From an uncultured Gammaproteobacteria bacterium (GTDB lineage: Bacteria > Patescibacteriota > Patescibacteriia > UBA9570 > XYC2-FULL-38-9), in the NCBI GenBank assembly GCA_964344485.1, contig CAYFNF010000003.1, positions 148,467 through 212,466 of the forward strand: a stretch of 64,000 nt of DNA, in the 5' to 3' direction. The notes below the pieces were generated by a model that was not told the DNA's origin, did no database searches, and saw only the letters and a list, made by a program, of their open reading frames with translations. This document shows positions 3,469-26,800 of this stretch, piece after piece. Each line of letters opens with the position of its first letter. The stretch's first letter is position 1. A program made the translations under genes and the position numbers.

Positions 3469-4338
3469 CTAGGAATAGAATTCTAAGAATATATCTTCAA
3501 GATTTGCGTGAGTAATTTCCACATCATCGAATTGATAGTTGCATAGTTTGTCTAGGAGCGGATTGATGTCGCCTTTTACTGTCATCTCTAAACCATTAGT
3601 GATCTGTTGAACAGATGAAATGCCGTCACCCTGAAAGTCGCTTTGTGGTAGCTCTTGTTTTGAAAACAAACGCACCGTGTACATGAGCTTCTCTTTAATG
3701 GACGAAACACTTTCCACCGCCACCATCTTGCCTTGCTTTATTATTCCAATGCGGTCGCAGACACGTTCGACCTCCCGTAAGTTATGCGACGACATAAAGA
3801 TGGTCGCGCCGCGTGCACGTGCTTCTTCCAATAAGTCGTATACTTCGTTTTGCAGTATTGGATCCAGGGCGTTTGTGGGTTCGTCAAATATCAAGACATC
3901 GGGTTCGTTCATCATGGCTAAAATAATGCCGAGCTTCTGCCTGTTACCAGACGAGAGTTTCTTTGCTTTCAGGGACGTATCGAAGTCTAAACGTTTCACT
4001 AGCTGATCTGCGACATTGGTTTTGCCGTTCAGTTTACTGAAGAAATCTATATGTGTTTTACCCGTCCATTTATCGTAGAGCCGTACTGTACCCGAGAGGT
4101 AACCGACCTGATGCTTTAATGCAACAGATTCTTTTTGAGCGTTTTTATCAAGGATAGATATCTCTCCTTTAGTTGGACGGATATAATCCATCATACAGCG
4201 AATGGTAGTGGTCTTCCCTGCTCCGTTCGGACCAAGGAATCCGAAGATCTCTCCTTTTTCTACTTGAAAAGAGATACCGTCGACAGCTTTAATTTTGCCG
4301 AAGTGCTTATGAAGATCTGATAGTGATATAACGCTCAT
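3469..4338 (-). CDS. ABC transporter ATP-binding protein
   Basis: Walker A GPNGAGKTT, signature LSSGNRQK, Walker B VLIFDEPT, H-loop SSHN. A TATAGT box at 4348-4353 lies 9 nt upstream of the ATG. Confidence 0.9.
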   Translation of the reverse strand: MSVISLSDLHKHFGKIKAVDGISFQVEKGEIFGFLGPNGAGKTTTIRCMMDYIRPTKGEISILDKNAQKESVALKHQVGYLSGTVRLYDKWTGKTHIDFFSKLNGKTNVADQLVKRLDFDTSLKAKKLSSGNRQKLGIILAMMNEPDVLIFDEPTNALDPILQNEVYDLLEEARARGATIFMSSHNLREVERVCDRIGIIKQGKMVAVESVSSIKEKLMYTVRLFSKQELPQSDFQGDGISSVQQITNGLEMTVKGDINPLLDKLCNYQFDDVEITHANLEDIFLEFYS

Positions 4339-4389
4339 ACTGTGGGTACTATAACAAAAAAATGAATTAAAAAAAAGGGCGATCTGGAA

Positions 4390-4896
4390 CTACACGGTGT
4401 CGCGGAAGGTCTCTTGCGGCTGATCGATCCACGGGCACTCACCGCTGGCGTCTGTTGCCACGAACTGCGCGTGGACGTCCGGTTCGACCGTTGAGGTCTG
4501 CTTGTGCCACAGGACAGCGAGCGTGATCTCGTCGCGTGGGATACTCTCCCAGTCAGCAAGCCACTGCAGGGTGCGTTCCGTGGTCAGACCCGAGTCCGTC
4601 AGGTCATCGACCAGAATCACTCCAGCGCGCCGAAGCGGTTTGGCTGAAGTGAGGTCGCGGCTGAGCATGACCTCGCGCTGCTTCTGGTCCCCGTCCGGGT
4701 AGCTGGAGACCGAGAGCACGGCCAGCGGAAGACCGAGCGTACGAGCGATCAGCTCACCGGGCAGCATGCCGCCCTTGGCGATGCAGATCACCTGCTGGAA
4801 CTCGATTCCGCTCTCGCGAAGCTTCCGGATCAGGGTCCGGACCAGCTCGAAGTATGCGTCCCAGGTCACGTGTATTCGCGGGTGTTCGTCTGACAT
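4390..4896 (-). CDS. gpt: Xanthine-guanine phosphoribosyltransferase-like PRTase (high-GC island A)
   Basis: IHVTWDAYFELVRTLIRKL, ICIAKGGMLPGELIARTLGLP, SVSSY, PRPP motif VILVDDLTDSGLT and PWIDQP parallel E. coli Gpt block by block. GGAGGA lies 10 nt upstream of the ATG at 4896; the ORF-track start at 4914 is an alternative. Line 4441-4500 has 39/60 G+C. Confidence 0.75.
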   Translation of the reverse strand: MSDEHPRIHVTWDAYFELVRTLIRKLRESGIEFQQVICIAKGGMLPGELIARTLGLPLAVLSVSSYPDGDQKQREVMLSRDLTSAKPLRRAGVILVDDLTDSGLTTERTLQWLADWESIPRDEITLAVLWHKQTSTVEPDVHAQFVATDASGECPWIDQPQETFRDTV

Positions 4897-4975
4897 GATG
4901 GTTCCGTCCTCCAATTAGTTTTGCCCGTTTCTATTGTACAACAAAAACAGTTTTTTTAGTATGTAGGGCTATAAA

Positions 4976-5893
4976 TTAATTTACCGTATAATCTGCGAAC
5001 TCGGGCTCTCGGATGAATTCAACATGAGCCAGGTTGCCGACTCCTGTTTCCTGGTCCTGACGAATCATGCGCTCTAGATGTGGAATAATGCTCTCTGGAT
5101 AAAAACGAATCGCGCTTAAACTATTTCTCAGCACATCGGATAAACGCACAGTTGCGTTTCCGGTCTCTTGAAAAGAAGGATCAATATGCTGGATTAATTG
5201 TTCGAGTAAACCGCGGAGGTGAGCCTCTGCTCGTCGCATGTTTTCCACTTCATCGTCTCGTAATTGTATTTTTCCACTATGTATCAATTCCATAATATGA
5301 CTGGAAAGAACACCGAATAGATGTGGATTCTCCATTTCAAGTTTATAGTAGCGATGAGATCCACCTTGTTCATCAGTAACCAAGAACTGTATTTCATCCA
5401 TAGGGTACTCTCTGACTCCTGCTTTGCTCATCAAGTTTGGCATTGCGAGAACACGATCCTGGTCCCCAATGCTTGCAGTGAGCTCTTTGACTAGTCGATC
5501 AATCTCAGGAGCAGAACGATCCAATACAGTTGTGCGGTCCCCAGAATACTCCGTGCCAGGTTGTTCTCGTTGAATGACAAGCTTTCGATCAAGCACCGCG
5601 TTGTTCACCGTACGCCCAACAAAGTAATCTACTTGTGTTCTATCCAACGTACGTAGTAAGCTCGTGCGGTTATAACGCTTTCCTAGTGTTGGTGTTCGTA
5701 GCTGATCATACGTACCTTGCGAGAACTCCCGTTGCGGTTCACGTGTGAGTAAATGCTGTAGGTATCGCTCGGAACGTTCGACTGTTTGTCCTTCTTTTAG
5801 TTTCTCTTCTCTCAACCGCGCAACAAAACCTGGATCATCGCGTAAGCGCGGATCTTGCCATCCTCCCCTTTGATATAACGGCCTACCTGGCAT
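4976..5893 (-). CDS. Hypothetical protein (305 aa)
   Basis: Long ORF of backbone composition with no signal peptide or TM segment and no domain I recognise. A TATAAT box at 5900-5905 lies 6 nt upstream of the ATG. Confidence 0.55.
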   Translation of the reverse strand: MPGRPLYQRGGWQDPRLRDDPGFVARLREEKLKEGQTVERSERYLQHLLTREPQREFSQGTYDQLRTPTLGKRYNRTSLLRTLDRTQVDYFVGRTVNNAVLDRKLVIQREQPGTEYSGDRTTVLDRSAPEIDRLVKELTASIGDQDRVLAMPNLMSKAGVREYPMDEIQFLVTDEQGGSHRYYKLEMENPHLFGVLSSHIMELIHSGKIQLRDDEVENMRRAEAHLRGLLEQLIQHIDPSFQETGNATVRLSDVLRNSLSAIRFYPESIIPHLERMIRQDQETGVGNLAHVEFIREPEFADYTVN

Positions 5894-5943
5894 TGTTGTA
5901 TTATACTACTATCTGTCTCTATTCTGGGTCTGAATTACTGCTT

Positions 5944-5980
5944 TGTCAATATTGACAGCTTTTACTACGTGATATATAGT
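5944..5980 (+). promoter_or_regulatory. Sigma70-like promoter TTGACA-17-TATAGT, with its -35 inside a 14-bp palindrome
   Basis: TTGACA at 5952-5957, a 17-nt spacer, and TATAGT at 5975-5980. TGTCAATATTGACA (5944-5957) is a perfect palindrome that places a second TTGACA on the minus strand. Confidence 0.5.
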
Positions 5981-5989
5981 ACTCGCAAC

Positions 5990-6040
5990 ATGAAGAACCA
6001 CGTATACAACGCTACAGTAACAACTACCCACCTTATGTGA
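5990..6040 (+). other. Mini-ORF (16 codons, MKNHVYNATVTTTHLM) or small RNA within a promoter-terminator unit
   Basis: The ATG is 9 nt after the TATAGT box, the same leaderless geometry as real genes here. There is no SD. The unit is followed by the terminator at 6070-6092. Confidence 0.3.
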
Positions 6041-6069
6041 GGCGTTGTTTAGTTTGTATCAATACCCTA

Positions 6070-6092
6070 GCGCCTCACTCGAGGCGCTTTTT
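6070..6092 (+). terminator. Intrinsic terminator
   Basis: GCGCCTC-ACTC-GAGGCGC (7-bp GC-rich stem) followed by TTTTT. Confidence 0.65.
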
Positions 6093-6107
6093 GATTATTT
6101 ATTCATT

Positions 6108-6235
6108 ATGAACTTTCTCTTTTTTCAATCAACTACTACACCGTTATTGCTCTTCTTCCTCACTGGAACAGTGCCGTAATTAGTGTTGTGTAGTTGAAAG
6201 GAAGAAGAGCGCGGTCCGAATGGGCCGTGTTTTTG
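6108..6235 (+). promoter_or_regulatory. Structured leader upstream of the carboxylate-amine ligase gene: mini-ORF, long-range helix, inner hairpin and a second terminator
   Basis: A 23-codon ORF spans 6108-6179 (MNFLFFQSTTTPLLLFFLTGTVP). A perfect 12-bp inverted repeat pairs GCTCTTCTTCCT (6149-6160) with AGGAAGAAGAGC (6199-6210). An inner hairpin CACTG-GAA-CAGTG lies at 6161-6173. CAACTAC (6130-6136) is complementary to GTAGTTG (6190-6196). Terminator CGCGGTCC-GAAT-GGGCCGTG plus TTTTT lies at 6210-6235. Confidence 0.45.
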
Positions 6236-6263
6236 TTCTTTTGAATGTAAAGGAGGAATTCCA

Positions 6264-7232
6264 ATGTATGGAATTGAAGCAGAGTATCTGATGACGAGTC
6301 ATCGCATCCAAGATGTGCTCAAGCTGCAGCTCCCGGGCGTGACCGCCGAGTTCTTCGACTTCATGGTCGAGATCATCACGGATCCGCACGCGCGTGCACG
6401 TCAGGCTGTGGACCAGCTGGAGCGTCGGGTGCAAAGAATGCGTCGACGAGGTGTGGAGCTCGAGCAGTGGGCGTCCTTCCCGGACCGAGTTCAGCCGATT
6501 ACGTTCACGGACGTGGTCGCAGACAGCCCGTACTACCGCTGGGTCTATGACCAAGCGTGTAGATTCACGGGTCATGAGCCGCTGGACCTGCACCATGTGG
6601 GCATGCACCTGAACTACTCGTGCTCGGACATGAGCGAAAACGAGCTGGTGCACGCGGTGAACTGGTGTCGGTGCATGAACTTCTTGTTCATCCTGTTCTC
6701 AGCAAACTCACCGTTCCAGAATGGGCAGTCCTGCGGGCTACTGTCACGACGGTCATATCAGTACCCCAACCGATACGACGTCCCGCTGTGGGAAAGCGCC
6801 GTCGCGTTCAAGCGCTGGATCCAGGAGCAAGAAGCGTTGTATCGCATCTACCCTGGAAAAGGTCGCTGCTGGATGACGGTCTGCCCGCGCTTAGAGGATA
6901 ATGATTTCCGCAAACCGATTCAACGGATCGAACTGCGATCGTTAGACTCAGGCACCAATGTCCGCTTCGGTGTTGTGCACGGGTGCTGCAAGCTACTCGA
7001 GCGCATTGTCTTGCGCGCACGCCAAGGAGCGCCCCTGCCAGCGCAACTGAACGAACTGCAGCACAACGATCGAGAGGTCTCGCGGCTCGGAGCAAGCGCA
7101 TGGGTACGCTTGAATGGGCAAGAGTTCTGCGTGCAGCAGCTCGCTGAACAATGGGCAGCGGGTATCGACACGCTGGAGCAGATATTAACGCACGGATGCG
7201 CAGCACAATCGTCCTTGCGCTACTGCGTTTAA
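6264..7232 (+). CDS. Carboxylate-amine ligase, glutamate-cysteine ligase family 2 (YbdK-like) (high-GC island B)
   Basis: The N-terminal YGIEAEYLM and EFFDFMVEIITDP..ARQAVDQLERRV follow the GCS2 pattern (G-x-E-x-E, then E...E..T.P with a helical region). At 322 aa it is shorter than typical YbdK. AAAGGAGG lies 7 nt upstream of the ATG. Line 6361-6420 has 38/60 G+C. Confidence 0.65.
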   Translation: MYGIEAEYLMTSHRIQDVLKLQLPGVTAEFFDFMVEIITDPHARARQAVDQLERRVQRMRRRGVELEQWASFPDRVQPITFTDVVADSPYYRWVYDQACRFTGHEPLDLHHVGMHLNYSCSDMSENELVHAVNWCRCMNFLFILFSANSPFQNGQSCGLLSRRSYQYPNRYDVPLWESAVAFKRWIQEQEALYRIYPGKGRCWMTVCPRLEDNDFRKPIQRIELRSLDSGTNVRFGVVHGCCKLLERIVLRARQGAPLPAQLNELQHNDREVSRLGASAWVRLNGQEFCVQQLAEQWAAGIDTLEQILTHGCAAQSSLRYCV

Positions 7233-7327
7233 CTCTCTGCAACACAAAGAGAACATGGTCTAGTATGAGCCACACATCATACTTTTTTTCTTTCTTCTAA
7301 ACTGCGCCTACGAATAATAAAACGGTA

Positions 7328-8551
7328 TTATTTCATTCTGAACTTCTTCCATGGGCTCCACTTGCTCCACCCAGCATCATTGCCGCATCGCACTCTGAAA
7401 CGATAGTACTGTTTACTCTTCACGAATTTCTTTGACTTTTTCAGAAATTTTGAATTAGTAGTAAGTCCTTTAAACTTTTTCACAGATGTAAATTTCCCGT
7501 TTGCTTTCTTTTTTTGTAACACTGCTTGATAGGTATCGGCATTTGCTTTCGCTTTCCACCACAACTTTGCTGACTTCTTCTTTTTCTTTTTCACTTTCAG
7601 ATGCTTCTTTTTCTTGATCTTGCTTGGTGCAGTGAGTTCATTAATTGTAAAATTTGCTAATGCATAATCTTCTGCTGAATCTGCTGCGCCATCAGTGGTC
7701 ATAGCAACACTATGCGCTCCGGCAATCCCAGCAACAGCATCACTGATCAATAAATCATACGCATCTTCATTACTTTTAGCTACGTCGGTAAGGACCTCAC
7801 AACTGAGTACAGAATTCTGACTGAGGTCATACGTTAAAATCTCATCTAAAGTGCCTTTAGAATTGTCTATAGTTGCATCAGTTAGATCCCACCCTGATTC
7901 ACTAGGCGATTTATTCTCTGCAACAAACACAATGCTTAGCTCTTCTCCGCTAGATAATCCACGGCTAAGCGTAAAATAGAGTTCTAGATCCAGTGTAGAG
8001 CCGGCGGTTGCCTCAGTTGGAGAAACTGATAACGAACCTACGGCATTTCCAAGGCCTTGGATGGACACAGTATCATCAGTCATGGTTGCATTCGCACTTT
8101 CACTCAGAGGCTGCGTTGTAACTCCAAAGCGAATTGACGTTGCCTCATCAGGATTCACCGCATCTGCTAGGGTGACGGTATACTTGTCTGCGGGGAGTTT
8201 TGCGGATAACGTTAATACAGTGCCCCTGCCATCAAGCACTGGTGAAAAAATAAAATTGGAGTTGCCAATAGATCCCTCTGATGAAGGAACCACATTTTGT
8301 AAATTTACATACTCCGGACCGTCGTCTTCTGTAGAGAAAATTGAGATAGTTGAACCGCTGGGTAGATCTACGTTAGTAGTGACGGCGATAGTATACGTCT
8401 CGGTTTCCCCAGCAATAGAAGCTGTTGGTGCAGCGGATACTTCTGATATATTTGCATCTTCCGTTCCTTGCATGCTAAATGCTTGCGCAGATGATGGCGC
8501 GTACACCAGGACTGCTGCGATAGCGAGTGTAAGCAAGATTGTTTTTTTCAT
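7328..8551 (-). CDS. Secreted surface protein with a poly-lysine linker and a C-terminal fibronectin type III-like domain
   Basis: Signal peptide MKKTILLTLAIAAVLVYAPSSAQA. The body is S/T/D/E-rich. The linker is KIKKKKHLKVKKKKKKSAK. The FN3-like end is LWWKAKANADTYQ...YYRFRVRCGNDAGWSKWSPW. Confidence 0.7.
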   Translation of the reverse strand: MKKTILLTLAIAAVLVYAPSSAQAFSMQGTEDANISEVSAAPTASIAGETETYTIAVTTNVDLPSGSTISIFSTEDDGPEYVNLQNVVPSSEGSIGNSNFIFSPVLDGRGTVLTLSAKLPADKYTVTLADAVNPDEATSIRFGVTTQPLSESANATMTDDTVSIQGLGNAVGSLSVSPTEATAGSTLDLELYFTLSRGLSSGEELSIVFVAENKSPSESGWDLTDATIDNSKGTLDEILTYDLSQNSVLSCEVLTDVAKSNEDAYDLLISDAVAGIAGAHSVAMTTDGAADSAEDYALANFTINELTAPSKIKKKKHLKVKKKKKKSAKLWWKAKANADTYQAVLQKKKANGKFTSVKKFKGLTTNSKFLKKSKKFVKSKQYYRFRVRCGNDAGWSKWSPWKKFRMK

Positions 8552-8612
8552 ATGTATTCTTTATTGATTAAGTGTATAGTATAACAGAAAGCAATGCTTA
8601 AAAAAAGCTGCG

Positions 8613-9020
8613 CTATTTCATATTATACGATGCCTGGAGCCAGGATAATAATTCTTTATTAATGTCTTTCTTGCTTTTCAAATCAAGACAGATTTTATAG
8701 CTCTTTGCGGACAAAGGAACTACAGCTTTTATTCTTTGCTTGGCGATCTTCTGACTATAAATAAACCGGATCTCTAATCGGTCTTTTTTTGGTAGCGCTG
8801 CGAGAAAATCGAATGTGCCGAATAGGTGTACGCAACAAGGAATGGAAATAATCTTGCACTTTCCAATTTTACTGTTTATCTCCTTTACCAAATAATTAAA
8901 AAGCTCTTGGGCCACTGTTTTGTTCTTGAAATGCTCTTTGACATCTAGTCTTTGGCAGGTGTGTGGTTGTTTCGCTCTACGAAAAATACGTTCGCATTTA
9001 GGGCAGGTCCACATAAACAA
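8613..9020 (-). CDS. DUF5655-like small protein
   Basis: The N-terminal CPKCERIF..AKQPHTC followed by an alpha/beta region (FDFLAALPKKDRLEIRF) resembles the DUF5655 family layout. The start may be M3. Confidence 0.5.
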   Translation of the reverse strand: MFMWTCPKCERIFRRAKQPHTCQRLDVKEHFKNKTVAQELFNYLVKEINSKIGKCKIISIPCCVHLFGTFDFLAALPKKDRLEIRFIYSQKIAKQRIKAVVPLSAKSYKICLDLKSKKDINKELLSWLQASYNMK

Positions 9021-9070
9021 TTGCTCGTTTTACGGATTATTATTCTCAGTATATCATTTTTGTGCCATAT

Positions 9071-9091
9071 AAAAAACAGGGCGAGTCCCTG
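9071..9091 (-). terminator. Intrinsic terminator downstream of tRNA-Asn (hairpin usable on both strands)
   Basis: CAGGG-ACTCG-CCCTG followed by TTTTTT on the minus strand. Confidence 0.6.
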
Positions 9092-9101
9092 CTTTTATCT
9101 G

Positions 9102-9173
9102 CTCCGGGGGTGAGATTCGAACTCACGACCAATCGGTTAACAGCCGACTGCTCTACCACTGAGCTACCCCGGA
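9102..9173 (-). tRNA. tRNA-Asn (anticodon GTT)
   Basis: A 72-nt cloverleaf parsed by hand: TCCGGGG/TA/GCTC-AGTGGTA-GAGC/A/GTCGG-CTGTTAA-CCGAT/TGGTC/GTGAG-TTCGAAT-CTCAC/CCCCGGA/G. No CCA is encoded. Confidence 0.9.
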
Positions 9174-9925: not shown

Positions 9926-11320
<1,395 letters not shown>

Positions 11321-11323
11321 ACG

Positions 11324-13114
11324 TTATCCTAACTTTCGTAAAGATTCCGTGAGTACACGAAATTCTTCTGAAAGCTGCTCGATCGTAGCATTATCATTAC
11401 TTTGTTCAGCTGTTGCAAGATCCTGTTCGATCTTCTTCAGCTGTCGTTGTATGCGAAATCGCTCTAAGCTTTCTAATAGAGTGAGCAGTTCTTGTTGTAT
11501 TTCTCTTGTTTCACGCTCACTATAGAGCTCTTCTCCGATGAGTTGAAGTTGCTGCCATTTGGATGACAATTGTGATGATTCAAACTCAACTGCATCTGGA
11601 GAAAAAGTACCTGCTTGATTATAATGGGATTCTATTTTTTTGTAAAGGTCTTGGAGTTCAGGGTCATGAATCGTATCTGACCGGACTTTCTCAGCAATCG
11701 CTGTAAATTCATCAGGTTTTACAGTAATTAGGGCAAGTAATCGCTCGACAGTCATATATTCCCGGTTGGGTTTTACTGTTTTTTGTGGTGTTTCTGTTGC
11801 ATCGCCCTTTGAGCCTCGCGCTTGGCTTTTTTGTTGTTTCTTGTTCATACTGCCTATCTTCTCTTGTAGTACGTCTGGGGTTACATCCAGAACCTCAGCG
11901 AGTTTTTTTACATAATGTGTTTGCTCAATTCTATCAGGGAACAGCGCAAGCATGGGCAGAAGCTCTTGTGCTGCCTTTTTCTTGTGATGCACATTGGTGA
12001 GATCAAGTGGCTCTAGAACAGAATCAAATGCATACTCCATGAACGGTTTTGCGTTTACAGCTCGATCGCGGAACTCTTGCGGGTCTTTCTTGATTAGATC
12101 GTCTGGATCTTGGCCTGGCGGAAGAATAAGGACTTTGATATTCATTCCTTGCTGGATCGCGAGCTGCATTCCTCGCCATGCAGCAGAGAGTCCTGCGGTG
12201 TCAGCGTCGAACGCTAAAATCACATTCGCAGAGTAGCGCTTGAGTAAACGGACCTGCTCTTCAGTGAGCGCGGTCCCGGATGCAGAGACCACGTTGCGGA
12301 ATTTCGCTTGATACGCAGTGATCACATCGGTGTAGCCTTCTACAATAACGGTCGCGTCCATCTTCTGAATATACTTCTTTGCCAAATGCAATCCATACAG
12401 TACTGCGCTCTTGTTATAAACCGGGGTCTGCGGAGAATTAATATACTTTGCTTCTTTCTCTTCTGGATTTAACGTGCGTCCGCCGAATCCAATGATGTTT
12501 CCATGTGCATTGTGAATAGGAAATAGTAACCGGCCACGAAATCGGTCGTAATACCCGCCGGTTTTCTCTGACGGCACAATCAGTCCGCTGCGTTCAATCT
12601 CCTTCTCTTTATAACCGTTCTTTTTTAAGTGATTCATCAACGCGTCCCATGAGTCCAAGCTGTAGCCGATCTGAAACAACTCAACCGTCTCTTTTTGAAT
12701 TCCCCGGTCAGTAATATACCTTCGAGCGTTCTCTGCTTCTTGTGCGTTTTGTAGCTGTGCTTGAAAGAAAGAATTTGCTTCTTTGAGGCAGTCCAGGAGA
12801 CGTGTCTTTTCATTATGTTCTCTTGGATTTGTTGGTCGTAACTCCACATTTGCTTTCTGTGCAAGAATACGCAATGCTTCTGCGAATTCTATAGATTCAA
12901 TCTCTTGGACGAACGTAAAGAGGTCGCCACCCTTGCCACATCCAAAACAGTGGAACATCTGCTTGGGTTCAGAGACCATAAAACTCGGTGTTTTCTCATT
13001 ATGGAATGGGCACCGTGCTTTGTGATTTGCGCCTGCTTTTTTTAGTGAAACGTACTCTTGGACTACGTCCACTATGTTCAAGCGTTCTTTGATCTCCTCG
13101 ACTGGTGTAGGCAT
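11324..13114 (-). CDS. dnaG: DNA primase
   Basis: Zinc ribbon CPFHNEKTPSF...CFGCGKGGD, RNA polymerase core, and TOPRIM motifs VIVEGYTDV and AFDADTAG. 596 aa. Confidence 0.95.
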   Translation of the reverse strand: MPTPVEEIKERLNIVDVVQEYVSLKKAGANHKARCPFHNEKTPSFMVSEPKQMFHCFGCGKGGDLFTFVQEIESIEFAEALRILAQKANVELRPTNPREHNEKTRLLDCLKEANSFFQAQLQNAQEAENARRYITDRGIQKETVELFQIGYSLDSWDALMNHLKKNGYKEKEIERSGLIVPSEKTGGYYDRFRGRLLFPIHNAHGNIIGFGGRTLNPEEKEAKYINSPQTPVYNKSAVLYGLHLAKKYIQKMDATVIVEGYTDVITAYQAKFRNVVSASGTALTEEQVRLLKRYSANVILAFDADTAGLSAAWRGMQLAIQQGMNIKVLILPPGQDPDDLIKKDPQEFRDRAVNAKPFMEYAFDSVLEPLDLTNVHHKKKAAQELLPMLALFPDRIEQTHYVKKLAEVLDVTPDVLQEKIGSMNKKQQKSQARGSKGDATETPQKTVKPNREYMTVERLLALITVKPDEFTAIAEKVRSDTIHDPELQDLYKKIESHYNQAGTFSPDAVEFESSQLSSKWQQLQLIGEELYSERETREIQQELLTLLESLERFRIQRQLKKIEQDLATAEQSNDNATIEQLSEEFRVLTESLRKLG

Positions 13115-14670: not shown

Positions 14671-17600
14671 CTATTCACTAGCCTGTTCCGCGCTTGGAAG
14701 CACAAATTCCATAATCGCGGCTCTCCTATATGTGTTGTAATCACTCAGCTTTCCACCGAATGAATCACTATATTGATATTCGTTCTGTGTACGTGCAATA
14801 TACATATCTCGCTCCTCTCCTTTGTTCTCTTCAGTATCTCCGCGAACAGTTGCACCGCGACGCGCCGCTTCTTCATAGAATGCTTGTAACGCCTGTTCGC
14901 ACCATACATGTGGAGTGATGGACACACTCGCTCCACAACTCTCTGCTTTATTAAATGCGAGCTGAGCAAATGCTTGATAGACACGCGGATGATCGATGGT
15001 TTTGTATGCAGGTTCAAGGAATAGTGTCGGATGCTCACCTTCTGTATTAGTTTCTCGAATCTGAGTAATACGCTCTACACATCGCAGTAGTATCTCGCCT
15101 TCTTCACCGCGTACATTAATTCCTTTTTTATTTGCATCCACAACATACGACAATAAGCATTCGTTGTATGCACCGCGCTTCCAGCTCTGGCACGTTTCAG
15201 ATGGTTCGGTTCCTAGTCTAATCATGCGTAATTCATCATCAAACTCCTCAGCTGTGACCGTTCCAACTTCGCTGACCGTGAATGGACGGTATAGCTGGTT
15301 CACGTCCGACGCGACTTGATGAAGACTCGCTGCTTCGCACTGCTGTTGCAAGCGCATGGCCATTCGCAGGACTGCACCACGTTCCAGAGGAGTGGCAGTA
15401 AGCTGCTCTCTGACTGCAGCGAGTTGGCGGGCGATCGCTGTAACTGCATCATCATCCGTGCGATCTGCGGTGAACTCTGCAAAATGTGCATCTGCATCAT
15501 CGAGCAGCCCGAGTGCAGCGGAACGTTGCTGCTCTAATAAGTCCTGCTCTTCATCTGAACGCTCTACTTGCACAGCGTCTTCGGTCTCAATCCAATGTTC
15601 ACGCTGATCACCTAGGAAACCAATCTGATCTTCTGCGCACTCATGCGTATATTTCCAAGAGGCAAAATCTCCCACTACATGATGTTCAATCACGCTACGC
15701 AACGCCTCGACTGGATCATCAACTTTCTTTGCTTCAAATGAGAGCAATAGGGTAGTACTCATATCTAGGAAGCCTGAACGATCATGCGCATCAATATTAT
15801 CTGCAATCGCATGACCGATCTCTGCGCTCACTCCGAGACGATCAGTAAGTACCGTAGCAACTCGGTCTCTGTAGTGTTCAGTTGGGCCAACCAATCCAGT
15901 TAATTCTTGCTCTTCTTTTATCAGTGCTCGTCGTCTGGTGCGAATTGCTTTACGTGTAGGTGGATCCAATCTCGGTAGAATCAATTCGATATTAGCAAGC
16001 GCTGCGCGAATTGCCTCTAAACGTTCAGTTGGATCATAGTCATACTCCATGCATCCAAACCGTTCTAGCATTTCAAACGAACGAAACATCTCTCGAACAC
16101 GTCGTGGATCATCACGTGTATCACGGTAACGCTGCATCATATCCTGAAGAACAGCAGCTCCTTGTTCACCTTGTGCTCGCATACGCAGGAATCCTTGCAA
16201 CAGAATACCCCTACTTTGATGAGATCTCCGTACTTTCTTGTGCGCCAAGAGCCGGCGAAAATTATCCATTGCATCCCCTTCTTCCTGTCCAATTGCTTCT
16301 TGCCCTATTTGTTCCATAAACTCAGGGTTAGCAGCGAGCGCAGCAGTTAAACCATGTATAGTCCACCACGGCGTCATGTCTCTGGCTTCTAGTACTCTAC
16401 GCTCTACTTCTTCGCGCTGTCGAAGTAGTATTCCGACAGAAGTACCATCCGGTAACAGCCCGGCCACAAATGCACTGCGCTCAGGCATGTCCATAAAGCT
16501 AAACATCTCTGGTACTTCAGTGTCAGAGAACAGATCTGCGAGTTGAGCGCGCGCTACAAAGAACTCGCCTTTTGACAGCAAACGAGTCCGTCCATATACA
16601 TCACTTGTTTCTTGATAGAGTACAGAATCTTCATCTACCATCTGTGCGATTAATGCACGTTCAATGCCAGGCATCGCTTCTAAATGCGCGCGTCCTTCCT
16701 CTGACTGAGCCAATCGTCTAATAATAGAAAATATCAGCACCGTGGTATGACCGGATCCAGCATAGAAGATATGCTCTAATAGCGGCTCGATAGCTTTAGG
16801 ATTTCCTAGTTTTCCTAGGTCCATCGCTGCATCTGTACCGTGGCCAGATTCGCGTCCACCTGGACGAATCATATCCCGCATCAGAGTTTCAATGAGAAAC
16901 TCTTCGAACTCTTCGAACTCTTCATCAGTCGCAATAGCTGCGACTTCAGGGTCGTCACGTAATAGACGTATGCGCTGTGTTCCACGTAGAATTTTTATCA
17001 GCTCATCATTGTTCCCGACATGTTGAATTGCGTCATCACGCAACGATCTACGTTGATGTTTAATAGCTGCGGTAGGGCGATCGTACGGTACAACTTCACG
17101 GTTAAAGTCACGATGCGCTCGCCAGTCAGCAAACAAACGCAAGAGATTCCTGGTTTGTTGGTTTGGATTCTCCCAGTTCGATCGGTCGATATCGCTGGGT
17201 GCCCACTCTACAGCCCTTCTCAGCTCTCTGTCTCTATCGTGCAGCATCATAAATCGATCACCAGGGCGGCGCGGAAATTCATCAGTAAGTGCACGGCCAG
17301 CTCTATCCTCCCATCCATTAAAGGTCTGCACTCGCTCACCACCGATGCGCAGATCATCTGGGTGCCTGCTATTACCATCATTCGTCAGTAGCGCGACGAC
17401 CGCTTGTTCCCACTGTCTGATCTGCGGTTCAAGGCCAGGATGCCTCTCTAATAGCTCATCCACAATTGGTTGAATATGCATTTCTCGTAACCGAGCATTA
17501 ATACGATCATGCAGCTCTGTACTCCCCGCAAGGGCATAGAGCTGCTCCTGTTGCTCGACGATCTCGGCTGTACGCTGCTGTGCTTCAGCATACAACCGAT

Positions 17601-18210
17601 CATCAATCACTTCTCTTGCACTCTCTCGTGCTGAACCCAAACTACGACGTCCTTGTCGCGATGAAACACCCTGGTCTGTTTGCAGATCTGCAACTGCTTC
17701 ACGAATGAGCTCCACAATGCGTTCATGTGCTTGCAATTGCGCTACTGCACGTTTGTGTGCTCTACTACATGTTCTGACCAACCAATGTGCTCCTGATAAC
17801 TGACGGGTACGAGCCTGCATCGCTCCGCTTATAACTGCAAGATTGCTTTCAAACGTACGTTCAAACGGCAATTCCACCACAGTAACGTCATACATGCTTA
17901 AGGTGTCAAGTGCTATCTCCTCCCATTCTGTTAAGAATTGAGCGTACTCCTGCTCTATTGCCTGCAATTCCTGTTCGAGCGCTTCTAGGCTTGCTTCAAG
18001 GTGCGCGTTCATTTCATCGTAACTCTCGCCTTGGAATACTTCACGTGCAGCAAGTAGTTCTTCTACACGCTGAGCCACTCCTTCTATGCGTTGCTGCACC
18101 CCTTGAAATCGTTCAAGCATAGCTCTGCCACGTTCAACAAACTGCTCATGATGTTCATGGTACTGAGCCTCTATTGGTGTTTGGTGATTTTCGCGAATAG
18201 GTGCATTCAT
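14671..18210 (-). CDS. Giant hypothetical protein (1179 aa), acidic and helical, with no signal peptide
   Basis: Uninterrupted ORF whose ATG lies 4 nt after the stop of the 1849-aa gene. The only hint is one HEAT/PBS-lyase-like stretch (DLGKLGNPKAIEPLLEHI). No TM segments. Confidence 0.75.
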   Translation of the reverse strand: MNAPIRENHQTPIEAQYHEHHEQFVERGRAMLERFQGVQQRIEGVAQRVEELLAAREVFQGESYDEMNAHLEASLEALEQELQAIEQEYAQFLTEWEEIALDTLSMYDVTVVELPFERTFESNLAVISGAMQARTRQLSGAHWLVRTCSRAHKRAVAQLQAHERIVELIREAVADLQTDQGVSSRQGRRSLGSARESAREVIDDRLYAEAQQRTAEIVEQQEQLYALAGSTELHDRINARLREMHIQPIVDELLERHPGLEPQIRQWEQAVVALLTNDGNSRHPDDLRIGGERVQTFNGWEDRAGRALTDEFPRRPGDRFMMLHDRDRELRRAVEWAPSDIDRSNWENPNQQTRNLLRLFADWRAHRDFNREVVPYDRPTAAIKHQRRSLRDDAIQHVGNNDELIKILRGTQRIRLLRDDPEVAAIATDEEFEEFEEFLIETLMRDMIRPGGRESGHGTDAAMDLGKLGNPKAIEPLLEHIFYAGSGHTTVLIFSIIRRLAQSEEGRAHLEAMPGIERALIAQMVDEDSVLYQETSDVYGRTRLLSKGEFFVARAQLADLFSDTEVPEMFSFMDMPERSAFVAGLLPDGTSVGILLRQREEVERRVLEARDMTPWWTIHGLTAALAANPEFMEQIGQEAIGQEEGDAMDNFRRLLAHKKVRRSHQSRGILLQGFLRMRAQGEQGAAVLQDMMQRYRDTRDDPRRVREMFRSFEMLERFGCMEYDYDPTERLEAIRAALANIELILPRLDPPTRKAIRTRRRALIKEEQELTGLVGPTEHYRDRVATVLTDRLGVSAEIGHAIADNIDAHDRSGFLDMSTTLLLSFEAKKVDDPVEALRSVIEHHVVGDFASWKYTHECAEDQIGFLGDQREHWIETEDAVQVERSDEEQDLLEQQRSAALGLLDDADAHFAEFTADRTDDDAVTAIARQLAAVREQLTATPLERGAVLRMAMRLQQQCEAASLHQVASDVNQLYRPFTVSEVGTVTAEEFDDELRMIRLGTEPSETCQSWKRGAYNECLLSYVVDANKKGINVRGEEGEILLRCVERITQIRETNTEGEHPTLFLEPAYKTIDHPRVYQAFAQLAFNKAESCGASVSITPHVWCEQALQAFYEEAARRGATVRGDTEENKGEERDMYIARTQNEYQYSDSFGGKLSDYNTYRRAAIMEFVLPSAEQASE

Positions 18211-18214
18211 ATAT

Positions 18215-21200
18215 TTATGTTGTTATCCTACCATATCCCATTACTGTTGGAAGTAGTCTCATTGGGCTAATATCTCGATATCGTGTCTTGCCTGGTTCCC
18301 CGGTTGGCTCTTCCATGCGAGCAAGATACGCCCCGGTTGCTAGAGACTTCATAAATTTCTCGAACCCTTCATGGATTGCGCGTCCTCCTTCAGAGATAAT
18401 CATCAATACCTCTTTATACTTCTCACCGGTTTCCAAGGTGCCTGACACCACCGCAGCAACACGTTCTAACTGTTCTGCTTCAACATCAGGCACAAACGTG
18501 CGAATTCCCTCTTGCACTAACGCCGGGTTCTGGAATTGTGCGAGCATGCCTAAGAATATCTTCTTAATGCTATCAATCTCTGTTTGCGCGATCTCGCCCG
18601 CGCTTCCAAGGTCCAGCTCTCCGAGTTCACCATCTGGCGTGACCACCCAATTTCCTGGGTGCGGATCTGCTTGAAATCGTCCTTTCACGAATATTTGATA
18701 CATGAGCGCGTCAAACGCTTGTACGTGGATATCTTCTAATCGACCGACGAGACCTTCATACGCAGTCATTTCATCTGGCTGCAAGTCGTATTTCGCTTGA
18801 AAATCTGCCAAGGTGCGTCGCCCCATTGCTACGTCAGTTAATTCTCGTAACGACAACCCTCGAATCTCCTCTTCTAATATATGTTCTTCACTGTGATCTA
18901 GGATCTCTGCAATGCGCACCGGGAACAGACGCGCCATAGCTGCTTGTGGGTAGTCTTCCATAGCCGCAGCCACTGCTTCATGATTCCGTACTTCTTCTTG
19001 GAAGTTTGCCTCATCACGTAACCAACGACCGATACGATCTTCCAAACCATCAGGTACAGTAAAATCTGCTTCGCGAAGATTTCCCATAATCCTATTCAGT
19101 ACCCGAAGGTCTTCCCCGAGATGCTTTGCAATAGATGGTCTTCGCACTTTTGCAATCACACGCTGTCCGTCTTCTCTAGTCGCACGATAGACTTGTTTAA
19201 TTGACGCAGCAGAGATTCGTCTGTCCATAGAAACCAGCCGATGTGGATGGCCTTCTTCAAACTGTCCCACTGCTCCCATCATGTGCATGCTGGCAGTACG
19301 GTGGAACGTTTTTGCGTTCTGTTGGAGCTTGCGCAATTCCTCGGCGATGTCATCAGGGAGCAACGGGGTACCGTCCGCGTTCTTTTCTTCAGCTAAGACT
19401 TGGCCTGCTTTAATACCGACTGGCCCGACCGCTTCTAGTAATCCACGCAGGCGTTCTCCAATTGTAGAGTCTCCTTGTCCGCGTAGTACTTCCATCATCT
19501 CGATGTAGACTTTTGCACGTCGGAATGGACCGTACTCTTGTAATGCAGTTGTAAAGATCACTCGTACTGCTTCTCTTCCTCTCTCTCCCAGTGCTTCTGC
19601 TGCTTCAGGTGGAAAGACTCGCTCAAACGATCGATCAATAAATTCTTGGAATATCGCTTCGTCTTCTTCTTCGCGCGGGTCCATGACACCGTTCTCTCCA
19701 AAGAGCAAACGGATATAGGTCTCTTCGCGTTCCTGTGGAGTGGCTGCAAAGAGTAGGTCTGGCATGTCTTCCACTGAGCACTCATTATGTCCACCGAATG
19801 CACGTAATATGCGCGGAGGTTGATCAGTCTCTCCGATAGTCCATAATACAAATTCTTTTCTGTCTTCACGGTTTAAATATGCTAAAACCGAATTGATTTT
19901 CTCTACTGTAGATTGTTGTGATAGTTCTGCGTCCTCGGTGGTGCGTCGTTGTACATCAAAAAGACGGCGTGTGATTTCCCGTGCTTGTGGAGGAGTGCGG
20001 ACTACGCCAGTATCTCCAAGTTGCAATAGCGCTTCACCCCGTACATGTGATGCGTGTGGGTAGAGCTCACTGATACGATCCAATTCGCTCGCAAAGGTCT
20101 CTTCCCCTGTTGCAAGGTGTTCTCGGAATAATGAATTCGCTCTTCGTGACCAAAGCTGCTGATGCGCTTGATCTGCAAACAGTGGAATGGTTCGTTGATA
20201 AAACGTATATAGTTCATGTGCAACATCTGGCTGAATCTCGTTCCCTTCTGGTGCAACAACTTCGTGTCCGTTCGTAGTAAGGCCACGCTCTTGTAGTAAT
20301 GCTGTTTCTATGGCGCCTAATAATTCATCACGATAATTCGTCACCTCTGGAATGAGTTCTTGAACGCGGTCCACTCTTCCAACTGCGGGGATCGAGGGAT
20401 CCGCTGGTAATTGAGTGTAGTCTATATAGAACTCTAGTGCATTGTACCGCTCTGAGTATTTGCGGTCCCCTCGGAATATCGTAGTAAAGCTCGGCGCAGA
20501 AGGATCATACGCTGCAGCATCAGATTCGATATTACGGGGGATCAACTCACTAGTGCTTTTTGAATAATGCGACTCTCGATCTATCGGGTGATAACGTTGA
20601 ACGAATCCACTCTCCACCACCTCATCTGGAAGCGCTCCTGGATGATACACTCGAAAGATGTCGCGAAGCTGCGTATCACGTGTGGAAACTGGAACAAACT
20701 GCGTTATAGCTGCAACACTCTCATCTTCTGATCGCTCATCTGGTTCCACATGCCATCTGCCCCATTGCCATATAATGCCGTGCGCTTCTAGTGCTCGTTG
20801 CATAATTGAATATGTAACCCCGCGATCAATACGATCCACGCCCCATTCTCCACTTCTATCTTCGGCTTGTTTGCATTTCCCTTCTATCTCTACGCAATAC
20901 CGTGCGAGCTCTTCTAGCTCTGGCTGAGTGAGTGCATCAAATGCTGCTTGTAAATCTGCAGCGTGTGGTGAAACGCTGGTATCAAAATTAATCGCGCCGT
21001 CTCGCAGCACTCTCTTCAGCGGCGCAACGATGGAATCGCCTGGATTAAGCACCATATACAACCGAACATACTCAATAGACAGCGAAATGCTATAGATAGC
21101 AGCTGCTTTATCGCGCTCTGTATAATCCTCAACTTCACGTCTGTCGATACAGTCGCTATCCCACTTCGGTACCACATCAAGTGCTGCCTCTAAAAAGTCT

Positions 21201-23764: not shown

Positions 23765-23832
23765 GTATGATTATAACAAATAAAAATATCACAAAATAGT
23801 GAAAAAGTCAATGGAATCCTCCAATACAATCA

Positions 23833-26800
23833 TTATGCAGCAGCAGCTGGCGGCTCGGGTTGCTGACGATGTCGATGATGGCTGAACCATGCTATACCAA
23901 CTAAGAATATAATGACGATTCCAATGTTAATCATCACCAGCATGGTGGTGCTTGAGAGGCGATTCTTCTCTTCAATCACAAACCGCGTGATCTCGACCTG
24001 GTCAGATTTCACACCGTTTACTTCGGTTTGAGCAAAAACGACGTGATCTCCTTCACCGAGCAACTCTGCTGGAACCGTAATACTCCATTTACCGTTGGTG
24101 TCTACTTGCGCGACTTTTACTAATGGGTCTGAATAGATCGTCAGAATTGCCACAGCAGACATCTCTCTATACTGCTCAGCAATCTCTCCGGAGATAGTAA
24201 TCTCGTTCTTCTGTTCTTCGACTGTGCCGCCGAATAATCGTCTTGTTGCATCAATAATATCCCACTGCTGAACTTGCGTATAGGTGACGGTCCCATCATC
24301 TGATACCGTCGGTTCGATTGTAGTGCTATCTTGCTGGAACTCTATATCCGCAGTGTCTTGCAGCTGTCCAGTCTCGGTGGTCTGCAATTCTTCTCTTTGC
24401 TGCTTGGTCAGCGGCACGACTTCATCTGTATATGTATACGGATTCTCTGGCGGTTGTTTGACTCCATCCTCAGCATATTGTGTTTTTATTAGCTCTTCAA
24501 ATTTCTTTACGTTCACTACAACCACATCTGGAAGGCCGGTGTCGGTTGAACCCCCTTGGATTGGGTTGGTGCCGTACTTCACTTCATCACTATCTGATAC
24601 GCCGTCGTCATCAGAATCCGTGTCTGTTGGGTCAGAACCCAAATCCACTTCGTCGGAATCGCTTACCCCATCTTGATCTGAGTCCGCGTCTTCTGGATCA
24701 GTACCTAGCTCTTTCTCTTGTTCATCAGTCAGGCCGTCTCCGTCACTATCGGTCTCAGCTGGCTCGGTGTCAGTTCCTTGGTCAGGGCCTGGGTCTGTGC
24801 CCTGGCTCGGATCGCCGGTGTCAGTGTCTGGAGTATCAGTAGAAGGAGTTTCTTGAGGGGTGGCAGGGGCTACGGGTACGCTCACAGGAGCACTTACTGG
24901 TGCTGACACAGTAAAGGTGATTTCATTCGAAGTAGTCTCTGGATAGCCAGCTTGTTCAGAAGTGACAGCGTATGCAGTATGCGTGCCTGTAGATAGTGCA
25001 GATGGACGACATGCAACAGAGCTGGTCTCTCCACCACCAGTTGCAGTAGTATCGCAAATTCTCTGCCCATCAACATAGATTTGGGTATAAGCACCAGTAC
25101 GTGCTAATAGAGTAATCCATGGTCGGTTATATGATGTCTGCGCGTCCACCACAACTTGTTGCATCACTGCTGCAGGGTATGGGGTTGCGCGTACAATAGT
25201 CTGTGGAGTAAATACCTTTATCACAGTATCTTTTTTCGTATTCACGACCTTTACCTTGATCGCATTCGCTCCAATTGATAGTGCGGTGGTTGGTGTGCCC
25301 TGATATGAAATCACTGGACCAGTGTCGCTGGTAATAGCAGCAGTTCCGCTCAACGTACCGTTTACGAACAGTTGTACTGCAACATCATCCACTGAGATAT
25401 TTCCGATATAGACGTTACCGAAAAAGACCGGGTTCTTACTAAACGTCACATTCGAAGTCAATTTACTTCGCTCCTCTTTTGGATAGATATGAAATCGATC
25501 TGACACTACAGAAGATCCGACCGTATACCGGACACTGGATGTCTTTCCCACATTCCCTTTCTTATCTTCGATATTTGCCTCAGACGTATGTTTGTCGTAA
25601 TTCTTCTGGATCTGCGAATCTACCTCCCATTCTCCTTGCGCGTCTGTGGTGTCAGAACCGTCTAACTCACCTTCGGTATATACAGAAACTTCAGACTCTG
25701 TTTCAGCAGTTCCACTAAATGAAACGTATTGGTTGTAAACAATGTCATTTTGTTCTGGCTCTTCGATTACTGCTGCAGGCGGGCCGATTGAGAAACTCGC
25801 GGTCTTCTCCCACTCTGTGGAGCTGGATCTACTAGCGGTCTTCACTTTTGTGTACAGCTCCCAGAGTCCGCGCTTCAGTGTAAACTCTGTTTCTGCTGTG
25901 CCGTTACTGCCGACCTGTTCTTCATTGATCTTCTCTGCGCCGTTCTTTACGCGCACAAATTTAAACACCACCCACTGGCCAGTGGTTCCGGTTGCTGATA
26001 GCTCTACCTTCAGACGACCGGTATCCTCCTGTGCACTCAGTCGATGTACGCTCGAAGGATCACTTCGCAACTGCTCTCCATTTACTGTTAGTGCGGTGGG
26101 TAACAGTGATGACGCTGATCCTTCCTGTGTAGTGAATGAGTCTACTGAAGAGTTCGATGTATTACTACTCGCATCCGCGCTCACTACCTGATAGTAATAT
26201 GTAGTGCTGCTTAAAAGCCCTGATACAGTCACTGAATGGCTCTTTGTTAATCCACTAGTTGTTTGTGACTGCGGAATTTGCTCAGTCTTTCCATATCGTA
26301 CTTGTGATGTTGCTTTTTCATTCGTGGTCCAAGTAATAACCGCGGATGTAGAACGGCGAGTGACTTGAATATCTGAAATAGTGGGCGCCGAAAGGTCTCC
26401 AGTATCTGTGGTTGGGATTACTGACCCTGAAGTAAACTGAGATGTATTGTTTGATGAGTCTGTTAGCGTTGCAGTGACTTTATAGTTAGAAGCATATGAT
26501 TCTAGAGTGCTCTTGGGAACATCAACGCTCCATGTTAAACTCGTGACCGCTGCTTCTGTTATATAGACCTCGCCTTCATTATTCCGGTCTACAAAGACCT
26601 CCACTGTTCCGTCACTAGATGCAGTACCCGAGACAGTGTATGTATCTCCTTGCAAAGAAATTGCACTGATCACTGGGGTAGCAAGCCCCTCATTTGCTCC
26701 ATCAATTAGATTAATTCCACTTGAGGAGTTGTTATAGATAGAATTCTGTGTTACTAAATTGTATTTAGTTCCACTTTGAGAGATGTTCAATCCATCTGCA

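Follow-up and report, generated by a model that had tools for sequence, protein, structure and literature searches.

Layout of the ligase leader

The 64-kb window analyzed here (the whole stretch of 64,000 nucleotides from contig CAYFNF010000003.1, with positions counted from its first letter) contains a gene for a carboxylate-amine ligase that is preceded by a 370-nt spacer, the ligase leader (5894-6263), located between the ATG (5893) of a divergently transcribed gene for a 305-aa protein and the ATG (6264) of the ligase gene itself. The spacer harbors two units in tandem, each consisting of a short open reading frame (ORF) with a run of threonine codons and an intrinsic terminator that follows it; the second unit is followed by the ribosome-binding site AAGGAGG and then by the ligase gene, whose product has the GCS2/YbdK fold. 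The features of this region, including the pairing segments that are discussed further below, are the following.

5944..5957, no strand: perfect 14-bp palindrome TGTCAATATTGACA, read directly from the sequence; two back-to-back TTGACA hexamers
5952..5980, plus strand: sigma-70-type promoter TTGACA-17-TATAGT (-35 box 5952-5957, -10 box 5975-5980; 11/12)
5921..5949, minus strand: divergent promoter-like site TTGACA-17-CAGAAT (10/12), facing the 305-aa gene (4976-5893)
5990..6040, plus strand: leader ORF 1 MKNHVYNATVTTTHLM, 16 codons, TGA at 6038-6040
6002..6031, plus strand: segment 1, which contains the threonine codons and pairs with 6037-6060 in the free RNA (anti-antiterminator)
6037..6047, plus strand: segment 2 GUGAGGCGUUG, overlapping the ORF 1 stop codon; 5' strand of the antiterminator in constrained folds
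6068..6078, plus strand: segment 3 UAGCGCCUCAC, shared between the antiterminator (as its 3' strand) and terminator 1 (as its 5' arm)
6069..6092, plus strand: intrinsic terminator 1, AGCGCCTC-ACTC-GAGGCGCT + TTTT, from the terminator scan
6108..6179, plus strand: leader ORF 2 MNFLFFQSTTTPLLLFFLTGTVP, threonine codons ACT ACT ACA at 6132-6140
6148..6211, plus strand: candidate antiterminator 2, in which UGCUCUUCUU (6148-6157) pairs with AAGAAGAGCG (6202-6211)
6205..6234, plus strand: intrinsic terminator 2, AAGAGCGCGGTCC-GAAT-GGGCCGTGTTTTT, 13-pair stem with a T-rich tail
6250..6256, plus strand: Shine-Dalgarno sequence AAGGAGG, 7 nt 5' of the ligase ATG, read directly from the sequence
6264..7232, plus strand: ligase, 322 aa, carboxylate-amine ligase of the GCS2/YbdK fold (Pfam GCS2, 1.5e-10)

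A first-pass annotation had described the first unit (5952-6092) as a stand-alone transcription unit, and its anatomical description holds up. The promoter, which it called one of the best in the window, is the top promoter-like site within 4000-9000 (11/12 in the promoter scan) and one of only 4 sites in the window, both strands included, that reach 11/12 or better, compared to 1.2 +/- 0.8 expected from dinucleotide shuffles. The 16-codon ORF 1 is found as described, its ATG at 5990 being located such that the -10 box ends 9 nt earlier, and so is the GC-rich hairpin followed by T5, with the trivial difference that the stem of terminator 1 (6069-6088) consists of 8 pairs (6 of them G-C) rather than 7, with a 4-nt loop and a T run that extends to 6092. 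The unit lies 5' of the high-GC ligase gene and on the same strand. The stand-alone status itself, however, does not survive: the promoter scan detects no promoter-like site between 5980 and the ligase start, a second threonine-codon ORF with its own terminator occupies 6108-6234, and the entire arrangement travels with the ligase, as shown in the next section.

Judging from the promoter position, transcription would start at approximately 5987-5990, that is, at the AUG at 5990 or no more than 3 nt from it, and given such a start, ORF 1 would be translated as a leaderless message. No Shine-Dalgarno sequence precedes ORF 1, and an in-frame GTG at 5969 falls inside the promoter spacer and hence is absent from the expected transcript. 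The threonine codons of ORF 1 are ACA at 6014-6016 and ACA ACT ACC at 6020-6028 (codons 9, 11, 12 and 13; ..TVTTT..), and those of ORF 2 are codons 9-11 (..STTT..). The ATG of ORF 2 follows the U-tract of terminator 1, again with no Shine-Dalgarno sequence. The ORF 2 peptide is also rich in phenylalanine and leucine (MNFLFFQ...PLLLFFL), and the region 6104-6237 shows a weak, sub-threshold match to the Rfam family Phe_leader (23.7 bits, E 0.075); it is possible that ORF 2 senses further amino acids besides threonine.

The perfect 14-bp palindrome around the -35 box (5944-5957), which the first-pass annotation interpreted as either a shared operator or a pair of back-to-back -35 elements, is present, and it supplies a minus-strand TTGACA followed, after 17 nt, by CAGAAT. 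None of the -35 boxes of the homologous promoters described below is embedded in a palindrome, so that a shared operator finds no support, whereas back-to-back -35 elements of divergent promoters are possible for this window but are not conserved; the palindrome probably reflects a divergent promoter of this one locus. On the minus strand, there is also a perfect TATAAT (5905 to 5900), separated by 6 nt from the ATG (5893) of the gene for the 305-aa protein. This gene, too, may be expressed from a leaderless message, via this TATAAT, as an alternative to the TTGACA-17-CAGAAT site.

The ligase and its homologous loci

The ligase scores 41.4 bits against the Pfam family GCS2 (PF04107; cut-off 21), and a Foldseek search with its AlphaFold model (pLDDT 87) identified YbdK (1r8g) as the closest structure (E 8e-12, TM 0.68), followed by gamma-glutamylcysteine ligases, PafA/Dop and glutamine synthetases. 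Near its N-terminus, the ligase retains the GxEAEY motif, which all members of the family share. Although the fold is shared, the window ligase is only about 15% identical to YbdK and belongs to a discrete, very small subfamily. Among the NCBIfam models, it falls far below every curated cut-off (the best score being 42.6 bits for TIGR02050, versus 176.4), and an exact-sequence look-up produced no match. A word-indexed search of 5.8 billion proteins yielded 7 and then 15 homologs, and when 1.84 billion cluster representatives were searched exhaustively with a profile, only 10 reached E<=1e-30, after which the scores dropped sharply.

For the comparative analysis, we used 10 distinct loci with sufficient upstream DNA (L002, L004, L005, L008, L009, L010, L011/12, L013/14, L015 and L016), namely the homologs with recoverable DNA together with one locus per collection scan; in L007, the upstream sequence is too short to judge. 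The ligase homologs encoded in these loci show 39-50% identity. All 10 loci contain one or two short ORFs with 3 to 7 consecutive threonine codons, each followed by a terminator. The peptides with threonine runs encoded in these leaders are:

L002: MRNRRFTTTTLNFLFSR and MNLFILTTTTTTTNSPPV
L004: MRNVRFTTTTTDTIFIG and MNFYQLTTTTTTASPP
L011/L012: MKYIVSTTTTTGTTLCG and MYIRIVTITTTTDPPT
L013/L014: MQYTRTSITTTTTSTPIPRS and MFSIHHSLLQTTTTTTTIGRGALLLGE
L005: MNNSPKKQLYTTTTTP
L015: MNNSVQQLQTTTTTQPEC
L008: MTYCGRYTTTTLLTRLPS
L010: MKSVFKTTTTKLP
L016: MKDLFRQTTTFSAPSD

The leader of L009 is a fragment cut by the contig end. The pattern was confirmed by promoter and terminator scans in L004, L011 and L013, and the terminators in the other loci were identified by script. 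The leaders are located either directly 5' of the ligase or, in L004 and L011, 5' of an M20 peptidase-ligase pair in which the ligase gene comes shortly after the peptidase gene. The flanking genes differ from locus to locus and include SMC with rpsP, fusA, glyS with an M16 peptidase, a translin-like gene, and thrS; conversely, no homologs of the 305-aa, 407-aa, phosphoribosyltransferase, DUF5655 and 224-aa proteins of the window were detected in any other locus.

The conservation is that of an arrangement rather than of a sequence. An alignment of 14 units shows conservation of the ATG, the ACN codons and the T-tract only, at a mean column identity of 45%; thus, of the conservation in related genomes that the first-pass annotation proposed to examine, the order of promoter, ORF and terminator is retained together with the ligase, whereas the RNA and peptide sequences outside the threonine run are not. 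All four threonine codons are used across the units (ACA 27, ACT 24, ACC 19 and ACG 7), which indicates a constraint on decoding and not on an RNA motif. In 8 of the 10 homologous loci, a TTGACA-17-TAnnnT promoter ends 8-13 nt 5' of the first leader ATG, a design confirmed by an independent promoter scan for L004 and L011; the first leader ORFs of these loci lack a Shine-Dalgarno sequence, whereas the ligase genes do have one. These observations support the leaderless start, already suggested in the first-pass annotation, as a likely conserved design feature of the first leader ORF. The first-unit peptides resemble one another across the loci (MRN/MK...) and so do the second-unit peptides (MNF/MNL...), with the peptide of the window ORF 2 being similar to the second-unit peptides MNLFILTTTTTTT (L002) and MNFYQLTTTTTT (L004). 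From these similarities, the tandem layout looks ancestral.

The association of threonine runs with the ligase module is specific. We scanned both strands of the window for ATG-initiated ORFs of 8-35 aa that contain any homo-amino-acid run of at least 3 residues and are followed by a terminator-like hairpin within 80 nt, and only the two units of the ligase leader passed. The same scan over both strands of 152 kb of the other loci detected threonine runs only 5' of the ligase module, against a background of 3 unrelated matches with phenylalanine or histidine runs. About 0.2-0.3% of random ORFs of 15-22 codons with the base composition of the spacer would contain a threonine run of 3 or more by chance.

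The Rfam search that had been proposed as a check identified no family above the threshold in the window, or in the other loci, apart from tRNAs. The Thr_leader model (RF00506; gathering threshold 55 bits) gave no match in the window at E<=10, and the highest-scoring relative was unit 2 of L002, with sub-threshold scores of 30.1 bits for Phe_leader and 26.2 bits for Thr_leader. The T-box covariance model had no match in the window or in any of the loci, and none was found upstream of thrS in L002 even at E<=5. The 340-nt spacer between the ligase and thrS in L002 (8994-9332) contains its own TTGACA, a T-box-core-like sequence GGTGGAACCG and a terminator-like hairpin.

Several other features of individual loci deserve mention. 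In L011, the M20 peptidase has a called start (4730) that falls within the terminator 1 loop, and the gene as called spans the second threonine ORF (4755-4805) and its terminator; the true start is probably the in-frame ATG at 4868. In L010 (181-340) and L009 (86-150), there are extra hairpins between the threonine attenuator and the ligase start that are not accompanied by any ORF with threonine codons; one of those in L010, at about 283-310, is a second terminator-like stem. A TTG-started frame that runs from immediately past the ORF 1 stop codon through terminator 1 into ORF 2 in the window, L002 and L013 was considered as a means of translational coupling and rejected; because this frame is lost in L004, we treat it as a chance occurrence.

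The proteins encoded in the module are poor in threonine: this residue accounts for 3.6% of the ligases overall, 3.1% of the window ligase and 1.5-1.7% of the M20 peptidases, compared to 5.2-7.1% of the neighboring proteins (7.1% in the case of the window). Such a composition fits proteins that are made during threonine shortage. In L002, the gene located immediately 3' of the ligase is thrS, encoding threonyl-tRNA synthetase (ThrRS; TIGR00418, 675 bits), a link that is present in this one locus only.

The ligase genes also stand out by nucleotide composition. In the window, the GC content of the ligase gene is 0.57-0.59 compared to 0.39-0.46 around it, and in every locus with flanks (L002, L004, L005, L008, L009, L011, L013, L015 and L016), the ligase gene is 4-17 GC points above its surroundings, for example, 0.58 versus 0.46 in the window (with 0.70 at third codon positions), 0.53 versus 0.37 in L002, and 0.61 versus 0.44 in L015. 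Because the excess is seen in every locus, a recent transfer into this one genome is too simple an explanation; the module may have been transferred repeatedly, or the bias may be intrinsic.

Alternative pairings and the predicted attenuation mechanism

The 109-nt RNA of unit 1 (5987-6095) is more stable than its shuffles (z -3.1), and so is the whole leader (5987-6265; z -6.0). In the minimum-free-energy fold of the 109-nt RNA, 6002-6031 pairs with 6037-6060 and the terminator forms. RNAalifold detected no consensus pairs in the MAFFT alignment of 14 units because the units are too divergent to be aligned in structural register, and constrained folding of each individual unit was used instead. 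Given that equilibrium folds with a ribosome mask are uninformative for unit 1, where the short-loop terminator wins, folding was modeled co-transcriptionally: each of 15 units was truncated just before the 3' arm of its terminator, the segment covered by a ribosome was represented by a 31-nt mask, positioned on the threonine run in one case and on the stop codon in the other, and the constrained antiterminator folds were compared with those of 200 shuffles.

With the mask on the threonine run of unit 1, segment 2 (6037-6047) pairs with segment 3 (6068-6078) over 11 pairs, with a free energy contribution (ddG) of -14.4 kcal/mol that was matched by 0 of the 200 shuffles; with the mask at the stop codon, segment 2 is covered and the contribution amounts to only -2.8 kcal/mol. 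The same contrast is seen across the set: the pairing of the terminator 5' arm is worth -3.9 to -18.1 kcal/mol when the threonine run is masked (0-7 of 200 shuffles match) and 0 to -3.3 kcal/mol when the mask is at the stop codon, the latter range applying to 14 of the 15 units, with unit 2 of the window being the exception. Segment 2 begins between -12 and +5 nt from the stop codon in 11 of the 14 tabulated units as well as in unit 2 of L011. Each locus has a different terminator sequence with its own matching segment 2, which amounts to covariation at the level of structure.

Taken together, these findings lead us to interpret the region 5952-6092 as the first of two tandem threonine-sensing leader-peptide attenuators that gate the transcription of the ligase, a reading to which we assign a probability of approximately 0.85. 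Under the proposed mechanism, when Thr-tRNA is plentiful, the ribosome would reach the UGA at 6038-6040 and cover segment 2 (6037-6047), leaving segment 3 (6068-6078) to pair with 6081-6088, so that the terminator would form and an RNA of about 105 nt would be released. The transcript of this size predicted in the first-pass annotation thus remains the expected main product under threonine sufficiency, although not as the product of a stand-alone unit. When Thr-tRNA is scarce, the ribosome would stall at ACA-ACU-ACC (6020-6028), covering segment 1 and leaving segment 2 free to form the 11-bp antiterminator with segment 3, and RNA polymerase would read through. If no ribosome is loaded, segments 1 and 2 would pair with each other, again resulting in termination. 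The readthrough RNA would then meet ORF 2 (6108-6179) and terminator 2 (6205-6234) as a second checkpoint, and the ligase message, with its own AAGGAGG, would be present only on those transcripts that pass both. Two checkpoints in series are predicted to yield a low basal level of expression and a steep response.

Several considerations weigh against this interpretation. We infer the start of transcription, the sites of termination, ribosome stalling and the response to threonine from sequence, while the alternative pairings come from thermodynamic modeling, and leaderless initiation presumes a host that would translate leaderless messages efficiently. The threonine run of unit 1 in the window is the shortest in the set, with 3 consecutive codons and one more, and the equilibrium fold of the full-length unit 1 keeps the terminator in spite of the ribosome mask; because the terminator always wins at equilibrium, the model depends on the order of synthesis, as in classical attenuation. 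Unit 2 is more problematic. Its ORF lies internally in the transcript and lacks a Shine-Dalgarno sequence; its antiterminator would stay accessible when the ribosome has reached the stop codon (ddG of -13.4 in the stalled state and -8.8 at the stop codon); and pairing of 6148-6157 with 6202-6211 would disrupt no more than the lower third of terminator 2, a non-canonical geometry. We consider unit 2 a probable second checkpoint, less canonical than unit 1 in the folding models. Finally, any link between the ligase and threonine is putative.

The first-pass annotation listed a small RNA, a micropeptide, a leader peptide and a ligase substrate as options that could not be distinguished from sequence; the comparative data do separate them and strongly support the leader peptide. 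Were the unit a stand-alone gene whose RNA of about 105 nt or 16-residue peptide acts in trans, with the proximity of the ligase being incidental, the strong promoter and strong terminator, as well as the RNA that folds better than its shuffles (z -3.1), would be readily explained. Moreover, trans functions of attenuator products have a precedent in the rnTrpL RNA and the peTrpL peptide of Sinorhizobium meliloti (PMC7968998, PMC7298713), so that a secondary role of this kind is possible. As the primary function, however, this appears quite improbable: in all homologous loci, although the neighbors differ, the unit accompanies the ligase or the peptidase-ligase pair, conservation extends neither to the peptide outside the threonine run nor to the RNA sequence, the ligase lacks a promoter of its own, and in 14 of the 15 units the stop-codon region is complementary to the terminator arm, a feature for which a stand-alone gene would have no use. 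Even less credible is the possibility that the threonine-rich peptides are precursor substrates of the ligase, with leaky terminators setting the ratio of precursor to enzyme. Short ORFs located directly 5' of a ligase from the superfamily of the Pup ligase PafA would fit this scenario, and terminators after precursor genes are common in gene clusters for ribosomal peptide natural products. Nevertheless, the ORFs lack Shine-Dalgarno sequences, only the threonine run is kept while the N-terminal part, the C-terminus and the length (13-27 aa) vary, the ORFs precede the peptidase rather than the ligase in L004 and L011, neither a transporter gene nor any other maturation gene recurs in the vicinity, and the antiterminator geometry at the stop codon would be left unexplained.

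A different possibility is that the same attenuator senses a drug, either a ThrRS inhibitor, acting via uncharged tRNA-Thr, or a peptidyl-transferase inhibitor that stalls ribosomes in a manner set by the nascent chain, in which case the ligase or the peptidase-ligase pair would confer resistance or tolerance. Chloramphenicol and linezolid reportedly favor Ala, Ser or Thr at the penultimate position. Upstream ORFs that sense drugs by ribosome stalling are well documented (PMC12121999, PMC4335068). Such a role would be in line with the fact that the regulated genes are not recognizable as those of threonine biosynthesis, with the adjacency of thrS to the ligase in L002, and with the variable contexts of the module and its foreign composition in every locus, a property it shares with many resistance genes. 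We nonetheless consider drug sensing unlikely given that runs of 3-7 identical codons are a hallmark of amino acid sensing and not of the known antibiotic-sensing leaders, and that the low threonine content of the regulated proteins fits limiting Thr-tRNA. The version that involves a ThrRS inhibitor is mechanistically identical to attenuation by threonine limitation, the only difference being the physiological trigger.

Genomic neighborhood, related systems and implications

The ligase module resides in a region (4976-9173) that includes the genes for the 305-aa protein, a 407-aa protein with no family assignment and a 135-aa DUF5655 protein, and adjoins a tRNA-Asn gene (9101-9173, minus strand), just downstream of rpoD; possibly, this region is a variable island associated with the tRNA gene. 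An exact-sequence look-up of the 305-aa protein retrieved only an identical metagenome contig, and no DNA match pointing to a plasmid or phage origin was found. On the other side of the 305-aa gene, which has a normal GC content, no family match and separates the two genes, 4390-4914 (minus strand) encodes a 174-aa phosphoribosyltransferase (Pfam Pribosyltran, with weak matches to models of xanthine/hypoxanthine phosphoribosyltransferases) whose GC content of 0.64 is the highest in the first 14 kb of the window.

A candidate defense island, suggested by PADLOC matches to an MzaA-like protein (9926-11320) and a DRT reverse transcriptase (11324-13114), was rejected because NCBIfam identifies the two products as RpoD and DnaG. 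In this minus-strand region (9926-13114), the PADLOC labels MzaA and RT_UG29/RTasDnaG-like strongly match the housekeeping genes rpoD and dnaG, a case of core genes being mislabeled through shared domains. Further along, three very large ORFs are found in a row (14671-29202, minus strand), encoding proteins of 1179 aa (no family), 1849 aa (M48 peptidase and ABC1 kinase-like domains) and 1789 aa (beta-helix/NosD and TSP3 repeats).

Among the known systems, the closest in logic is thrL, the leader of the enterobacterial thr operon (Rfam Thr_leader, RF00506), with which the ligase leader shares an ORF with threonine codons, the choice between a terminator and an antiterminator set by the position of the ribosome, and charged tRNA-Thr as the predicted signal. 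However, the ligase leader falls outside the covariance model (26 bits for the best relative versus 55); thrL also carries isoleucine codons and controls thrABC, whereas the ligase leader has runs of threonine codons only and is predicted to control a YbdK-like ligase with or without an M20 peptidase; and the ligase leader has a first ORF that is probably leaderless, as well as two attenuators in a row. When checkpoints are arranged in series, expression of the downstream gene requires repeated readthrough. Such an arrangement is known for thrZ of Bacillus subtilis, where three tandem T-box leaders answer to uncharged tRNA-Thr; the serial checkpoints are alike, but in thrZ, the RNA recognizes the tRNA directly, via the T-box, and does not rely on translation of threonine codons. 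The leader of Salmonella mgtCBR also contains two short ORFs in tandem (PMC3641672) and resembles the ligase leader in having checkpoints in series, but its ORFs sense different signals.

A close parallel for the putative leaderless sensor comes from mycobacteria, where a ribosome stalled in leaderless short ORFs encoding polycysteine remodels the downstream RNA and thereby controls translation, turning on the genes of the operon (Canestrari et al., bioRxiv 10.1101/834739). The run of codons for a single amino acid and the sharing of a signal by several loci are common to both systems, as is, probably, the leaderless first cistron, but the amino acid is cysteine there and threonine here, and the mycobacterial structure sequesters the downstream ribosome-binding site, whereas the alternative structure in the ligase leader is an intrinsic terminator with a U-tract, and the Shine-Dalgarno sequence of the ligase (6250-6256) lies 3' of the terminator. 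In architecture and proposed mechanism, the leader also resembles leader-peptide attenuators known from bacteria other than Proteobacteria, namely those of trp, ilvB and leuS in Actinobacteria (PMC1262725) and the leucine-rich ilv attenuator peptide of Staphylococcus aureus (PMC5794164); these, however, control recognized genes for amino acid biosynthesis or aminoacyl-tRNA synthetases, whereas the one in the window precedes a ligase.

Although the mechanism itself is textbook, its recognition here turns an apparent orphan small gene into a cis-regulatory leader. The leader is a clean and highly conserved case of an attenuator away from its classical context, as it precedes neither an amino acid biosynthesis gene nor an aminoacyl-tRNA synthetase gene, and it combines a sensor ORF that is probably leaderless with a serial pair of sensors. 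A search of the literature retrieved nothing that would link YbdK-like ligases to threonine or to leader peptides. It is conceivable, and we offer this tentatively, with the odds somewhat against it, that the rare YbdK-like ligase, with or without a PepT/ArgE-like M20 hydrolase, constitutes an unrecognized threonine-limitation module with a threonine-related chemistry. Should this be the case, the reaction carried out by the module would be salvage, an alternative route to threonine, or protection under inhibition of ThrRS, and the leader would provide the first functional handle on an orphan ligase family. For this tiny subfamily of orphan ligases, the leader suggests the hypothesis that the enzyme is made when charged tRNA-Thr is scarce.

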